Positions 38,614-45,756 of a stretch of 64,000 nt of DNA are shown one piece after another. Position numbers and translations under genes: made by a program. Each line of letters starts with the position of its first letter. The stretch's first letter is position 1. The DNA is from Squalus acanthias (lineage: Eukaryota), in contig JASTWF010000034.1 in assembly GCA_030390025.1 (NCBI GenBank), positions 1,984,001 through 2,048,000 of the forward strand, in the 5' to 3' direction. The notes beneath the pieces are model-generated. The model had not been told where the DNA came from. It searched no databases and worked only from the letters and a program-made list of their open reading frames with translations.

Positions 38614-38822
38614 GTTCTTTTTTTTCAATATCCTCTCTGACCCCGAAGTCCGAGCTTAATTCTCTTACGCCCCCAGTTCAATGAATTTTAAGCTCAGCAT
38701 TCGGAACAAGGTGGATGAATTAGCTGCGCAAATAGAGGTAAATTAACATGATTTGATTGGGATTACCGAAACATGGCTCCAGGGTGGCCAAGGCTGGGAA
38801 CTCAACATCCAGAGGTACTCAA

Positions 38823-39037
38823 TGTCATAAATCGCAAGTAACAACTCAGGAAGTACTACTGGGCGGCCAGCTGGGGCGCCGTCCAGGGAGTATAAATACT
38901 CAGGCATGGGCCCACCTTGGGCAGAGACAATCTGGAAACAGGAAGCTAGTGACTGCTAACTAGACCTCCATGTTTTGTTACAAGTTGATTAAAGCCTTGC
39001 TTTATGTTCAAGTGCGTAGTGAGTCTTTATTACGTCA
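38823..39037 (+). repeat. 5' LTR
   Basis: tgtcataa...ttacgtca; TATAAATA at 38891-38898; ATTAAA at 38988-38993. Confidence 0.97.
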
Positions 39038-39137
39038 ATTTAATCAACTTGGTATCGTCTCCACGCTTTGGGTGATTCGGAACAACCAGCTGCAACTCGA
39101 ACCACAGAAGGGAACTAGGGCAAGAAACTGATCCATC

Positions 39138-40145
39138 ATGGAAAAACTCCTTCGACCCGCTCGTCTCGACCTGGACCCGAATGCACCTGCGGCAGCGAAG
39201 GTATGGAAGCATTGGTTTCGTACCTTTAGCAACTTTCTTGAAGAATGTGGGGCGGATGTCCCTAATAAGTTACGAATGCTTATCAACTACGTGTCTCCTC
39301 ATGTGTATGATTATATTGAGGACTGTATAATCTATGACACTGCTATCGAAATCTTACAGCAGCTATATGTCAAGTCCCCAAATGAAATATTTGCTCGACA
39401 CCTACTGGCCACAACTCGACAGCAGCCTGGGGAATCACTCGATGAATTTCTCCAGAAACTTCGCAGGCTCAGCAAGGATTGTAACCTTAAAGCAGTTACA
39501 GCTGAACAGTATCAAGAGGAACTAATCCGCGATTCCTTTATCAATGGAATCGCGTCCCCTTTTATACATCAGCGCCTGCTGGAAAATAAAACCCTCAATT
39601 TACGGGCTGCTTATGACCAGGCGTGTTCCTCGGCCTTGGCCAAGAAAAATGCAGACACTTATCTCCCATCACGTGCACGGGCGGCGGCTATCTCCTTTAA
39701 TGAGTCTTTCGGTAGGTCTCGGGCGGATGCCCCCACTGATGTTGACTCTACTCTAACGGACGACGACCCTACCCTAGAGGCCTTCGCTGATGACGACCCT
39801 GCCCTAGCAGCATCCTGGCAATCAGGAAGAAAGTGTTTCTTTTGTGGAGGGGCGTGCCATCACAGAAAATTTTGCCCGGCTCGTAATGTGACCTGCAATC
39901 GTTGCAGCAAGAAAGGACACTTTTCCAAGGTATGCCAGTCACGGGCCTTTGCTAACAAGAAAGGCCGCTCCTCTAAAGTATACCGGTCGAGAGCTCCTGT
40001 TAGTTCACAGCTGCTATCTATGGAGCTGCTCCTCCCCCAAGAACTACTGTTAAGGCTACAGTTGCCGAAGAGAAAATTGCCCCTCCTCCCATCACGGCTG
40101 TTTTTCCCCAAAGTTTGTCCCATGCAGCCACGAAGGTTTCAGTAA
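39138..40145 (+). CDS. gag: Gag with two zinc knuckles; last about 45 aa probably out of frame
   Basis: RQQPGESLDEF, LIRDSFINGI and CFFCG..H..CPA..CNRCSKKGHFSKVC. Confidence 0.92.
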   Translation: MEKLLRPARLDLDPNAPAAAKVWKHWFRTFSNFLEECGADVPNKLRMLINYVSPHVYDYIEDCIIYDTAIEILQQLYVKSPNEIFARHLLATTRQQPGESLDEFLQKLRRLSKDCNLKAVTAEQYQEELIRDSFINGIASPFIHQRLLENKTLNLRAAYDQACSSALAKKNADTYLPSRARAAAISFNESFGRSRADAPTDVDSTLTDDDPTLEAFADDDPALAASWQSGRKCFFCGGACHHRKFCPARNVTCNRCSKKGHFSKVCQSRAFANKKGRSSKVYRSRAPVSSQLLSMELLLPQELLLRLQLPKRKLPLLPSRLFFPKVCPMQPRRFQ

Positions 40146-40360
40146 ATGGGCACACTCTAAGCGCGCTAATCGACTCCTGCAGCTCTGTAAGCGGGCTGTC
40201 AACAGGTTAAAACTGCACATTTATCCCTCGGACAGGGAGATTGCAATGGCTCTGACGACTCTGACCACCAATTCTTCTGTCTTCTGTCTGGTCAACCTCA
40301 TCCTCAACGGCCGCACGTATCTCTCCACCCGGCTCGGAGTACTCGCAAACTTATGCAGCG

Positions 40361-43063
40361 ATGTGCTTCTGGGACAGGACTTCCAGAAGCAGCACAAGAA
40401 GATCACTTTTGAGTTTGGAGGGTCAAGGCCGGAGCTTACCATTTCTAAGGTGCCGTTTTGTTCACTCTCGGCGGCCTTACTCGGTGAACCCTCCCTGTTT
40501 GCCAATCTTCCCCCCCCCCCCCCGCTGTAAACCCATAGCCACCAAATCGCGGCGCTTTAGCCAAGACGATCGAGCGTTTATTGAGGCGGAAATCTCTCGC
40601 CTTTTAGTCGACGGTATTATCGAGCCATGTTCATCTCCCTGGCGGGCTCAGGTCGTCATCGTGAGGAATCCCTTAAAACAACATAAAAAACGTCTGTGTA
40701 TCGATTATTCGCAGACTATTAATCTATATACCGATCTGGATGCCTACCCGCTGCCACGCATAGATGACATGGTCAACAACCTTGCCAAATACAAGGTATT
40801 CTCGACCTTCGATTTAAAAAGCGCGTACCATCAGGTGCCACTGCAAGACTCCGACAAGAAGTATACGGCCTTTGAGGCCAATGGTCGGCTTTTCCAGTTT
40901 CGCCGCCTTCCATTCGGGGTCACCAATGGGGTGGCCGTCTTCCAACGGGCCATGGATGGCCTAGTCCGGCAAGAGAACTTGACGGATACCTTTCCGTATT
41001 TAGACAATATCACTATTGCCGGCCATGATCAAAAGGAGCATGACGCCAATCTTCAGAGATTTTTTGACGTACTCCGCCGTCGCCACTTAACGTTAAACGA
41101 ATCCAAATCGGTGAAGTCGGTGCCATCGGTGAACATTCTTGGCTACTGGGTGGGCAACGGTGTTATTAAACCGGACCCAGAGCGACTTCGTCCACTTCAG
41201 GAGCTCCCTCCCCCGACGAACCTCGGCTCTCTTCGTCGGGCACTTGGCATGTTTGCTTATTACGCAAAATGGATACCACACTTCTCCGATAAAATACAGC
41301 CCCTGCTCCATGCGAAGTCTTTTCCATTGGAAGCTACGGCTATTTCTGCCTTCAACCTCCTCAAACGACAGCTGGAGAAAGCCACGCTTCGCTCCATTGA
41401 CGAAAATCTTCCTTTTGTGGTCGAATGCGATGCATCGGAGGTCGCGATCTCCGCTACCTTGAATCAAGGTGGCCGACCCGTGGCATTCCTATCCAGAACC
41501 TTGCAGGGTAGCGAGCTCCATTACCCCCCCGTCGAGAAGGAGGCTACGGCCATCATCGAGGCTGTACGCCAATGGGGTCATTTTCTTGCTCTGCGTCATT
41601 TTACGCTTATAACTGACCAGCGCTCTGTGGCCTTCATGTTGGATAACCGGAGGCGCTCGAAAATCAAAAATAATAAAATTCAACTCTGGAGGATGGAGCT
41701 GGCTGCCTTTGGATATACTATCTGTTACCGACCCGGCAAACAGAACGTGGCCCCAGATACCTTCACACGGGCATTTTGCTCCTCAATGTCAACGTCGACT
41801 CTGGCGGATTTGCATATGGACTTATGCCATCCTGGTGTGACCCGCATGTTGCACTTTGTGCGCTCCAAAAATCTACCATTTTCAACCGAGGACGTAAAGA
41901 AAACATGCTCCTCCTGTAGGATTTGTGCAGAATTGAAACCACAATTCTTTCGCCCATCAGATGGCTTACTCATACATGCAATGCAGCCTATGCAGAGGCT
42001 CAGCATAGACTTTAAAGGGCCATTGCCTACGTCGACAAGGAACACCTACCTACTTACGATGATGGACGAGTATTCACGCTTACCCTTCGCCTTCCCCTGC
42101 CCTAATATGCTTACCTCTACGGTAATTAAATGCCTCGATCAGGTCTTTTCCCTTTGCGGGACGGCCAATTTTATCCACACTGATCAGGGTCCCTCCTTTA
42201 TGTCGAGTGAACTTAAAAGTTATCTCTCCCAACGGGGAATCGCCTCAAGTAGGACGACACCATATCACCCAATCGGTAACGGACAGGTTGAACGATACAA
42301 TGCCATCATCTGGAACGCTGTCCGTCTGGCACTAGGGTCATGCAACCTACTGGACCAGCAGTGGGAAACGGTGCTCCCCGACGTGTTACACTCTATCAGG
42401 TCTCTTCTCTCCACGTCTACTAATGTCACGCCTCATGAGCGATTCTTCAAATTCCGGCGTCGCTCTACACATGGGACGTCTCTACCGTCATGGTTGGTGG
42501 CTCCAGGCCCGGTGCTACTCCGGAGGTTCGTCCGGTCTGCCAAAAACGACCCTCTCGTTGACGAGGTGGAGTTAACGGAGGTAAACCCCACGTATGCGCA
42601 CGTATGGTACCCTGATGGCCGGGAGACCACCGTCTCGCTCCGAGATCTGGCTCCCTGCCCAACCGGTCACACGGGCCCGAATGATGAAGGATCCCCCGAC
42701 AATGATATCAACACTCCGCACCCCTATGAAAATGACGCCCCGCTTGGGACATCGGGGGATCTGCCGGCAACGCTACCGGATCAACTCAGGGACCTGGACG
42801 TTCCCCGTAGGATGGCCACCCGAAACCAGGACACCGGACAATCTCCAGCCACGACCCGGGATGAGGCCAGCTCCGCACCTGTGGGGACCCACACCCGGAG
42901 TCATGATATTCCCAGTCCTCCACAGGATGATCAAGATGACGCGGATTCTACTGACTTACCGGTACGGGCCAAGCGACCCAGGGACCAGGACACGGTCCGG
43001 GGAGACGTGCCTTCTGGTCACAAGCAGAGAGCTAAACGTCTACGGCAATACTGGTCCGCCTAG
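40361..43063 (+). CDS. pol: Pol (RT, RNase H, integrase); true homology begins at about 40524; protease (LIDSCSS, about 40135-40500) lies upstream in shifted frames
   Basis: SPW, RLCIDY, DLKSAYHQ, LPFGV, YLDN, CDAS, EKEA, TDQ, HHCC, SIDFKGP, HTDQGPSF and NGQVERYN. Confidence 0.95.
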   Translation: MCFWDRTSRSSTRRSLLSLEGQGRSLPFLRCRFVHSRRPYSVNPPCLPIFPPPPRCKPIATKSRRFSQDDRAFIEAEISRLLVDGIIEPCSSPWRAQVVIVRNPLKQHKKRLCIDYSQTINLYTDLDAYPLPRIDDMVNNLAKYKVFSTFDLKSAYHQVPLQDSDKKYTAFEANGRLFQFRRLPFGVTNGVAVFQRAMDGLVRQENLTDTFPYLDNITIAGHDQKEHDANLQRFFDVLRRRHLTLNESKSVKSVPSVNILGYWVGNGVIKPDPERLRPLQELPPPTNLGSLRRALGMFAYYAKWIPHFSDKIQPLLHAKSFPLEATAISAFNLLKRQLEKATLRSIDENLPFVVECDASEVAISATLNQGGRPVAFLSRTLQGSELHYPPVEKEATAIIEAVRQWGHFLALRHFTLITDQRSVAFMLDNRRRSKIKNNKIQLWRMELAAFGYTICYRPGKQNVAPDTFTRAFCSSMSTSTLADLHMDLCHPGVTRMLHFVRSKNLPFSTEDVKKTCSSCRICAELKPQFFRPSDGLLIHAMQPMQRLSIDFKGPLPTSTRNTYLLTMMDEYSRLPFAFPCPNMLTSTVIKCLDQVFSLCGTANFIHTDQGPSFMSSELKSYLSQRGIASSRTTPYHPIGNGQVERYNAIIWNAVRLALGSCNLLDQQWETVLPDVLHSIRSLLSTSTNVTPHERFFKFRRRSTHGTSLPSWLVAPGPVLLRRFVRSAKNDPLVDEVELTEVNPTYAHVWYPDGRETTVSLRDLAPCPTGHTGPNDEGSPDNDINTPHPYENDAPLGTSGDLPATLPDQLRDLDVPRRMATRNQDTGQSPATTRDEASSAPVGTHTRSHDIPSPPQDDQDDADSTDLPVRAKRPRDQDTVRGDVPSGHKQRAKRLRQYWSA

Positions 43064-43110
43064 TCCGTTAAAGGAAGACTGGACTTCCAAACCTTTTTAG
43101 GGAGGAAGAA

Positions 43111-43325
43111 TGTCATAAATCGCAAGTAACAACTCAGGAAGTACTACTGGGCGGCCAGCTGGGGCGCCGTCCAGGGAGTATAAATACTCAGGCATGGGCC
43201 CACCTTGGGCAGAGACAATCTGGAAACAGGAAGCTAGTGACTGCTAACTTGACCTCCATGTTTTGTTACAAGTTGATTAAAGCCTTGCTTTATGTTCAAG
43301 TGCGTAGTGAGTCTTTATTACGTCA
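43111..43325 (+). repeat. 3' LTR
   Basis: Direct repeat of 38823-39037; only difference seen is ctaactAgacc vs ctaactTgacc. Confidence 0.97.
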
Positions 43326-45756
43326 CTCAATATTCAGGAAAGATAGGCAAACTGGAAAGAGAGGTGGGGTAGCATTGCTGGTTAAACAGGGGATGAACAC
43401 AATTGAAAGGAATGATATTAGCTCTGATGATGTGGAATCTGTATGGGTTGAACTGAGAAATAACAAGGGGCAGAAAACGTTAGTGGGAGTGATATATAGA
43501 TCTCCAAACAGTAATGCGGAGGTTGGGGATGGCATTAAAAGGGAAATTAGAGATGCGTTCAATGAGGGCACAGCAGTCATCATGGGTGACTTTAATCTAC
43601 ATATAGATTGGACTAACCAAATTAGTAACAATACGATGGAGGAGGAATTCCTGGAGTGCTTAGGGGATGGTTTCCTGGACCAATATGTCGAGGAAACTAT
43701 CAGAGATCAGGCCATCTTACACTGGGTATTAGTCACCCCGGACTTCCAAATTTTAATTTAATTTGTTAAGTTTCCTTTAAAGTTTTATTGAGTTACAGAT
43801 ATTTAATTGGTACCCATTCAAAAGAGTACACAGGGTATTATGCAATGAGAAAGGATTAATTAGCAATCTTGTTGTGCGAGGCCCCTTGGGTCGGAGCGAT
43901 CATAATATGATAGAATTCTTCATTAGGATGGAGAGTGAAGTAGTTGACTCAGAGATTAGGGTCCTGAATTTAAATAAAGGAAACTACGATGGTATAAGGT
44001 GCGAGTTGGGTAGGATTAATTTGGGAATGTCACTCAAAGGGTTGATTTGTGGATAGGCAATAGCAAACATTCAAGGACCGCATGGACGACCTACAGAATT
44101 TGGTCATCCCAGTTTGGCATAAGAATAAAACAAAAAGGGTGACTCAACCGTGGCTAACAAGGGAAATTAGGGATAGCATAAGATCTAAGGAGAGGGCATA
44201 TAAATTGGCCAGAAAAAGCAGTAACGCTGAGGATTGCGAGCAGTTTAAGATTCAACAAAGGAGGACAAAGGGATTAATTAAGAAAGGGAAAATAGAATAC
44301 GAGAGTAAGCTTAAATGGAACATTAAAACTGACTGTAAAAGCTTTTATAGATATGTGAAGAGAAAAAGATTAGTGAAATCAAGCATAGATTCCTTGCAGT
44401 CACAATCAGGGGAACTTATAATGGGGAACAAAGAAATGTCATACCAATTAAATACATATTTTGGTTCTGTCTTCACAAAGGAGGACACAAATAACCTCCC
44501 AGATATGTCGGGGAACATAGTGTCTAATGAGAGGGAGGAACTGAAATAAATCAGTAATTGTAGGGAAATGGTGTTAGGGAAATTGACGGGATTGAAGGCC
44601 GATAAATCCCCAGGGCCTGATAATCTACATCCTAAGGTAATTAAGGAAGTGGCCCTGGAAATAGTAGATGCATTGCTGATCATCTTCCAACATTCGATGA
44701 AATCTGGAACAGTACCCATGGATTAGAGGGTAGCTAATATTACCCCTCTATTCAAAAAGGGTGGTAGAGAGAAAACATGGAATTACAGACCGGTAAGCCT
44801 GACATCGGTAGTAGGGAAAATGCTAGAGTACATTATAAAAGATGTAACAGCAGAGCACTTGGAAAACAGTGACAGGATCGGACGAAGTCAACATGGATTT
44901 GCAAAAGTTAAATCATGCTTGACTAATCTACTGGAACTCTTGAGAGGATGTAACTGATAAAATAGATAAGGGAGAACCAGTAGATGTGGTGTATTTGGAC
45001 TTGCAAATGGCTTTTGATAAGGTCCCGCATAAAAGATTAGCGTGTAAAGTTAAGGCACATGGGTTTGGGGGCAAGGTATTGATTTGGATAGATAACTGTT
45101 TGGCAGACAGAAAGCAAACAGTTAGAATAAACGGGTCTTTTTCCGAGTGGCAGACAGTGACTAGTGGGGTACCGCAGGGGTCGGTCCTTGGACCCCAGCT
45201 CTTCACAATATACATTAATGATCTAGAGAAGGGAACTGGATGTATTATCTCCAAGTTTGCAGACGGCACAAAGCTGGGTGGGCGTGTGTGCTGCGAGGAC
45301 GATGCCGAGAAACTCCAGGATGATTTGGACAGGTTGGGTGATTGGGCAGCAGCGTGGCAGATGCAATATAACGTGGATAAATGCGAGGTTATCTACTTTG
45401 GTGACAAAAACAGAAAGGCAGATTATTATCTGAATGGCAATAGATTGGGAGAAGGGGAATTGCAACGACCTGGGTGTCCTTGTGCACCAGTCGCTGAAGG
45501 TAAGCATGATGGTGCAGCAGGTGGTTAAGAAGGCAAATAGCATGTTGGCCTTCATAGCGAGAGGGTTTGAGTACAGGATCAAGGATGTCTTGCTGCAGCT
45601 GTACAGAGCCCTGGTGAGACAACACCTTGAGTACTGTGTGCAGTTTTGGTCGCCTTATCTGAGGAAGGAAGGAGTTCAGTGAAGATTCACAAGGCTGATA
45701 CCCAGGATGGCAGGAAGGACGTATGAAGAGAGATTGGTTTGATTGGGCTTATACTC

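Follow-up and report, generated by a model that had tools for sequence, protein, structure and literature searches.

A Mag C-like Ty3/Gypsy lineage with a primer-binding site complementary to its own LTR: a probable case of Tf1-like self-priming in which primer and poly(A) signal overlap

To our knowledge, self-priming of reverse transcription has been proven only in the Tf elements of fission yeast, and it has been predicted for their chromovirus relatives and for some plant Copia elements. The Tf1 self-primer is 11 nt long, and a 1998 article by Lin and Levin reportedly names in its title a 'U5-IR-like' structure for this element. In Tf1 and Tf2, a site directly behind the LTR pairs with a segment of R, and the RNA, once cut, is extended, a mechanism that passages of two papers give as experimentally established (PMC4600332, PMC5341516). 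Sections of two further papers (PMC6317226, PMC6934838) list Tf1/Tf2/Tj1, the Tf1/sushi group, the Tcn1 chromoviruses of plants and the TAR Copia elements as cases in which self-priming has been described or predicted; for the Tf1/sushi group of vertebrates and fungi, Tcn1 and the plant TAR elements, namely Houba and Osr-1, the prediction is based on LTR-PBS complementarity, as stated in a passage of the first of them (PMC6317226). Regarding animal elements, parts of one survey (PMC3601003) report AATAAA followed by a GT-rich stretch for Metaviridae LTRs generally, AATAAA near the 3' end of sushi LTRs, and, for the Mag C group, a mean LTR length of 174 nt, the termini TGTNATRT..AYANAACA and a metazoan-wide distribution that includes vertebrates. 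Among open full texts, a coverage that does not extend to the articles first describing SURL, Jule, Tf1 and sushi, we found neither a description of self-priming or of the PBS for Mag, SURL, Jule or the C-clade, nor a paper linking a self-primer to a poly(A) signal; three papers on C-clade diversity (PMC6238403, PMC8220671, PMC3587641) do not discuss the PBS of the clade.

The stretch of DNA analysed here (64 kb, hereafter the window) contains a complete LTR element of 4503 bp on the + strand, at 38823-43325, with the features expected of Ty3/Gypsy, namely two TG..CA LTRs, a TSD, a polypurine tract, and gag followed by the order PR-RT-RNase H-integrase (Table 1). Its LTRs differ from each other by one base (38962 A versus 43250 T), and in this copy gag, the short putative protease ORF and pol occupy three different frames. 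Comparison with Pfam detected no chromodomain (PF00385) in the window pol, which sets the element apart from the Tf1/sushi chromovirus group. The LTRs of its relatives, described below, begin with TGTNATG-like sequences and end in ACAACA or ATAACA, in good agreement with the Mag C profile, while the window LTR end, TTACGTCA, fits that profile less well than they do. The element interrupts a LINE-type ORF, as the flanks (38650-38822 and 43326-43760) translate as endonuclease-like sequence, with ..ITETWLQGGQGWELNIQ.. on the 5' side and ..RKDRQTGKRGGVALLVKQ.. on the 3' side.

Table 1. Features of the element, with positions in the window.
Feature	Position	Strand	Remarks
TSD CTCAA, 5' copy	38818..38822	+	identical 5 bases at 43326-43330
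5' LTR, 215 bp, TG..CA	38823..39037	+	single mismatch to the 3' LTR
GGGCGG, GC-box-like	38861..38866	+	within the 5' LTR; putative function
TATA box TATAAATA	38891..38898	+	90 nt upstream of 38981; predicted start at about CA 38922/38923; absent from relatives at that distance
LTR arm of the duplex, candidate self-primer, CAAGTTGATTAAA	38981..38993	+	last six bases, 38988-38993, are ATTAAA
First loop hairpin	38994..39015	+	predicted in the fold of the loop; its first base directly follows the arm (GCC..); lies in a GU-rich region
Second hairpin, 7 bp, U5-IR-like	39016..39033	+	predicted fold; just 5' of the LTR end
Candidate PBS arm TTTAATCAACTTG	39039..39051	+	complementary to 38981-38993; spacer is A39038
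gag ORF, 335 aa	39138..40145	+	two CX2CX4HX4C knuckles; no Pfam match; N-terminus conserved among relatives
Short ORF, third frame, putative protease	40246..40530	+	from its position and the protease Pfam entries of relatives
pol ORF: RT, RNase H, integrase	40361..43063	+	Pfam; no chromodomain match
Polypurine tract AGGGAGGAAGAA	43099..43110	+	abuts the 3' LTR
3' LTR, 215 bp, TG..CA	43111..43325	+	arm copy at 43269-43281; no complementary site after it
TSD CTCAA, 3' copy	43326..43330	+	matches 38818-38822

The sequence-only reading of this locus had called attention to an exact 13-nt complementarity between the LTR and the PBS position, and the sequence bears this out: the arm at 38981-38993 is the exact reverse complement of the site at 39039-39051, which begins two bases past the end of the LTR, and the arm recurs in the 3' LTR. 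Its placement of the LTR end at 39037 with one spacer base before the paired site proved right as well, as did that of ATTAAA at the 3' end of the arm, the sole poly(A)-type hexamer seen in the window LTR, and of a TATA box upstream. The further claim, that the pairing extends by a few pairs with one bulge, turned out to be weak, since past 13 bp only T38978-A39054 and one G-U pair fit. The complementarity is far beyond chance: when the LTR was shuffled 5000 times with its dinucleotides preserved, no complement to 39038-39062 exceeded 11 nt (a length seen in 2 shuffles) and 13 nt was never reached (0/5000); in the rest of the window a complement of at least 11 nt within the 215 nt upstream was present at 12 of 2517 sampled positions. 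The helix is AU-rich. Folding of the RNA, also proposed in that reading, gave a divided answer: the 13-bp helix is part of the predicted minimum-energy fold when the RNA begins at 38920 (38920-39140) and is absent when it begins at 38981 (38981-39140), and neither fold is more stable than those of shuffled sequences (z of -0.05 and 0.13, respectively), so that folding energy provides no argument.

Relatives of the element are numerous and widespread. At E<=0.001, 2153 pol relatives were found among 7999 scored in the database, and the 120 homologs listed are 52-83% identical to the window pol. The named ones among these 120 come from shrimp, nematode, copepod, soft coral, sea anemones, mussel, tunicate, shark and ray, and are annotated only as 'uncharacterized protein'; relatives at 70-83% identity occur across phyla, and according to precomputed Pfam lists none of the 120 carries a chromodomain. 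A profile scan of metagenome contigs recovered 80 related loci with 42-78% pol identity, many of which lie between two LTRs of 144-241 bp, with 3.8-4.0 kb from one to the other. No relatives were found in viral contigs, and no transcript-like contigs with poly(A) tails occur among the 80 loci.

In these relatives, the sequence right after the 5' LTR is complementary to a segment located 52-70 nt before the LTR end, and the sequences themselves differ. The arms measure 14 nt in L033, 13 nt in L034 and L042, 15 nt in L053 and 16 nt, with one mismatch, in L082; L031 and L032 have a similar arm-site complementarity. A covariance model built from 13 relatives, and used to find further members, located arms in loci outside its training set (L040, L045, L046, L048, L065 on the other strand, L078 and L081). 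As a denominator, gag N-termini were located by tblastn, which gave 32 gag starts in 31 of the 80 loci. Clear arms accompany 25 of these starts, and 4 others (L043, the second copy of L053, L064 and L071) show arms that are decayed yet recognisable; arms are missing at the remaining 3, namely L057 and the duplicates L098 and L101. The arrangement thus characterises the clade and is not peculiar to the window element.

Some of these loci have peculiarities of their own. Four loci of one assembly (L036, L038, L041 and L060) belong to an invertebrate-like family whose 13-mer arm and site are identical to those of the vertebrate family in the window, the LTR being otherwise unalignable; the shared 13-mer may reflect horizontal spread or strong constraint. 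At L048:2130-2340 there is a 16-nt direct repeat, ATAATCGTTCGTGTTG, with one copy in U3 and another right after the paired site. The contigs of L045, L040 and L110 are circularly permuted, running from the pol end through the PPT, one LTR and the PBS to the gag start, as would result from LTRs collapsed by the assembler, and L031 and L032 terminate in a 127-nt repeat that resembles a k-mer artefact.

Compensatory changes between PBS and LTR, which the sequence-only reading had proposed to look for, were evaluated in 20 representatives aligned by MAFFT, with 18 candidate pairs counted. The 11 pairs adjoining the loop (columns 8-18) are paired in 218 of 220 cells, column 7 in 19 of the 20 representatives and column 6 in 18, and the count then falls to 12, 14, 13 and 11 in columns 5, 4, 3 and 2, and to 7 in the outermost column 1. 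Hence the 13 loop-proximal pairs (columns 6-18) form in 18-20 of 20 representatives and the share drops from at least 90% to 60-70% and lower further out; because the representatives were chosen for having arms, the share paired is partly built in, which does not apply to the position of the arm, its conserved flanks or the slid controls. Changes on both sides were observed in 14 of the 18 pairs (71 cells), and the covariation score was 0.525 against 0.167 for shuffles, a value reached in 0/500 of them; with the 3' partner displaced by 1-3 columns, the score was 0.07-0.10. The value reached in none of the shuffles is 0.525. Co-variation was analysed on a 13-sequence version as well. A compensatory change can also be seen within a single family, where L037, compared with L036, L038 and L041, has G>T in the LTR arm matched by C>A in the site. 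Co-variation of the two arms was thus found across the relatives.

The surroundings of the duplex are conserved too. The poly(A) hexamer inside the LTR arm, noticed in the window by the sequence-only reading, is a recurrent trait: the arm ends in AATAAA in 8 of the 20 rows and in ATTAAA in 6, and the remaining ends (GTTAAA in 4, TTTAAA and TTAAAA in one each) are single-base variants of a poly(A)-type hexamer. Counting from the 3' end of the arm in 19 representatives, positions -1 to -3 are A in 18-19, position -4 is T in 18, position -10 is G in all 19, and position -11 is A in 14. The bases that follow the arm are G or A (14 and 4 of the 19), C (17), C (16) and T (16), and 15 of the 19 have a small hairpin beginning with the first base of the loop. 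Such a conserved AAA|GCC context is suggestive of a cut at the end of the duplex, with which it would be compatible. The loop is 24-68 nt long, with a GT fraction of 0.38-0.69 overall and 0.62 in the window, being GT-rich in some families. Moreover, in every family the paired site begins 1-2 nt past the LTR end (..CA A|TTTA..), and in most invertebrate relatives the gag ATG follows within about 2-20 nt after the site. The hexamer, the near-fixed GCC with its hairpin and the GT-rich loop fit a genuine poly(A) signal working in the 3' LTR, where the arm has no pairing partner after it.

As in Tf1-type elements, the PBS matches the LTR of the element itself and not the 3' end of a tRNA, the comparison with tRNAs covering two isotypes. 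The sites are family-specific and none starts with TGG, as the sequence-only reading had supposed for the window, so that no single tRNA fits; the orientation of the pairing is the one a primer needs, again in accordance with that reading. A site that pairs with the LTR of its own element and changes along with it, that lacks an initial TGG throughout and that varies from family to family speaks against priming by a tRNA and in favour of Tf1-like self-priming, and the clade probably primes its own reverse transcription in the way yeast Tf1 does. In the RNA, 38981-38993 would pair with 39039-39051, and the RNA would be cut after A38993, presumably by the RNase H of the element as in Tf1. Extension of the freed 3' end over A39038 and 44 bases back to 38994 would produce a minus-strand strong-stop DNA of only ~45 nt, which may then move to the 3' copy of R, the stretch from the hexamer to the poly(A) site providing the homology for this first jump. 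In the 3' LTR, the hexamer would be unpaired and could direct cleavage ~15-25 nt downstream, while nearness to the cap, pairing, or the two together would keep its 5' copy silent. The transcript most likely starts at or within a few bases of 38981, in which case the primer would be the 5' end of the RNA, ~13 nt long, in ordinary Tf1 geometry. Taken as a whole, the reading of the element as a young Ty3/Gypsy of a Mag C-like (SURL/Jule-like) lineage, free of tRNA, with Tf1-like self-priming and a transcript start at ~38981, is the one we prefer, at about even odds. A start at the conserved A-G at -11/-10, which would give an 11-nt primer, was set aside because the pairing at -12 and -13 co-varies as well.

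The sequence-only reading had placed the primer inside R and not at the predicted cap site. Within this proposal, the location of the segment in the LTR and its polarity as a primer held, and the internal position depends on the TATA box at -90. Transcription would start at ~38922, as directed by that box, ~58 nt upstream of the arm, and one 13-bp duplex would serve as internal self-primer after a cut at 38993/38994, and would hide the 5' poly(A) signal with the 3' copy left open; in an extended form of the proposal, put forward here, it would also rewrite the PBS from the R copy in each cycle. Several observations are in line with it: the TATA box is well formed, GGGCGG lies 30 nt upstream of it, and the CA at 38922/38923 is found where the start is predicted, 58 nt before the arm; the helix enters the minimum-energy fold only if the RNA begins upstream; of the 20 rows, 14 carry the poly(A)-type hexamer in the arm and the others a single-base variant of it, and the loop of the window is GU-rich as expected of a downstream element. 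Rewriting of the PBS from the R copy would also explain why the two arms change in lock-step. The relatives, however, do not share such an upstream start, as their TATA-like motifs lie at -8, -24, -29, -31, -57, -62, -73 or -113, or are absent. A motif at -24 to -31 was found in 3 of 20 rows by script pattern, weak ones near -30 were seen by eye in L048 and L045, and the 20 rows show no TATA or initiator whose distance from the arm is constant. A TATA at -90 is missing from L045, the closest relative that has an LTR. Moreover, past 13 bp the pairing weakens in all families, which would be expected of a primer ending at that point. In the standard scheme of reverse transcription, synthesis of plus-strand strong-stop DNA runs through the primer as far as the primer's 5' end; with an internal primer that carries a 58-nt 5' tail, the 3' end of this DNA would be unable to anneal and the second jump would be blocked, unless a second cut or a stop of the plus strand intervened. 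Altogether, we consider an upstream start with an internal primer doubtful; if true, its geometry would be one not described for Tf1-type elements.

It could also be that the duplex is structural only, acting in poly(A) occlusion, in packaging or in a contact between the leader and the 3' R, with something unrecognised as primer. Co-variation proves pairing or copying and not priming, and the presence of the hexamer in the arm gives the pairing a use of its own, as in HIV-1, whose 5' poly(A) signal is held in a hairpin; in the window, the hexamer of the 5' copy does sit in the predicted helix, a likeness to HIV-1 occlusion at the structural level only. Such a role leaves unexplained that the paired site occupies exactly the PBS position, just past the LTR end, in every family, that the gag ATG follows so closely in most invertebrate relatives as to leave no room for another PBS, that no TGG-type site was seen in these families, and that the polarity fits priming, which together make a purely structural duplex quite unlikely. 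Priming at 39039-39065 by a host tRNA, whole or halved, or by a piece from the interior of one (e.g., at TGGTATCG.., from 39050), with the LTR match being secondary, is very improbable: TGG does occur at 39050-39052 and half-tRNA priming is known in copia-type elements, as mentioned in a section of PMC6317226, but position 39052, G in the window, is A in many genomic copies and in contigs of three other organisms, which destroys the only TGG, the sites vary among families yet always match their own LTR, the longest word that the site has in common with the 25 distinct host tRNAs compared, all Lys-TTT or Cys-GCA, is 5 nt, and no tRNA gene lies within the 64-kb window.

These 25 distinct sequences, of two isotypes, derive from 51 tRNAs, taken from the top-scoring Rfam tRNA matches together with 20 small extra pieces, and the comparison agrees, for these isotypes, with the absence of a tRNA partner supposed at the outset. 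Near-identical tRNA-Lys(TTT) genes were found in tandem arrays with ~1.8 kb spacing (G000 contigs C29, C2208, C1484 and C1516).

The family to which the window element belongs is young and present in high copy number. Searching the 3.7-Gb host genome with the LTR-leader gave 1137 candidates, the 40 scored being all ~100% identical, and LTR-PBS junctions with no more than 2 mismatches amount to 692, with at least 96 exact ones among the matches listed. Many other genomic copies carry a single open frame of 1315 aa. The interior of the window copy is ~98% identical in DNA to that of other copies, and the LTRs are 99.5-100% identical. The G/A exchange at 39052, the base adjoining the paired site, marks two subfamilies. 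At the one position examined with exact flanks required, 0 arm variants were found within the family, and a shark pol homolog used as bait (P0093) matched only the window family (98% DNA identity), revealing no second family in the same genome. In addition, 62-82% of the sampled LTR-leader words are present in the contigs of 14 of 15 run rows, and 8% in the remaining one, under six organism labels and with no RNA run among them, which indicates that the family is common to several species and nearly unchanged among them. Contig sets of four sequencing runs have loose ends at the LTR borders (38821/38823 and 39037/39039), as expected of DNA.

Overall, the window element is best read as a further case of a known kind of self-priming, in which the notable feature is the overlap of primer and poly(A) signal. 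Self-priming would thereby appear as the rule in a different Gypsy lineage, one that is spread over many animal phyla and includes a very successful young vertebrate family, that of the 692 junctions and the many copies with an open frame of 1315 aa. Independence from host tRNA could ease the movement of such elements between distant hosts, and would let them escape defences directed at tRNA-type primer sites; by the same token, annotation pipelines that rely on a tRNA PBS would miss or misjudge them. The overlap of primer and poly(A) signal may, moreover, represent a compact model for the way in which a short LTR deals with the 5'/3' poly(A) problem.

Compared with described systems, the window element resembles Tf1 and Tf2 of Schizosaccharomyces pombe and Tj1 of S. 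japonicus, as far as the published passages portray them, in having no tRNA PBS, in pairing with its own LTR and in the stem-loop beside the duplex; it differs from them in an arm of ~13 nt that ends in a poly(A) hexamer, in its animal host and in the lack of a chromodomain match. The same kind of LTR-PBS complementarity underlies the prediction of self-priming for the Tf1/sushi, Tcn1 and TAR elements; these are chromoviruses or Copia, whereas the window lineage resembles Mag C in the length of its LTRs and, more clearly in the relatives than in the window element, in their termini. With the elements of the Mag C-clade, such as SURL of sea urchins and Jule of Xiphophorus, the lineage appears to have in common the short LTRs, the 3' terminus AYANAACA, AATAAA with a GT-rich stretch downstream, a wide distribution among metazoans and a length of ~4-4.5 kb, Jule itself being 4.8 kb long with LTRs of 202 nt. 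Finally, as in HIV-1, the poly(A) signal is repeated at both ends of the RNA and must be silent at the 5' end. In HIV-1, the hairpin that holds the 5' poly(A) signal is a local one and forms at either end of the RNA, whereas in the window element the pairing partner of the signal is the PBS itself, located only at the 5' end, with an effect on polyadenylation that is predicted from this arrangement.
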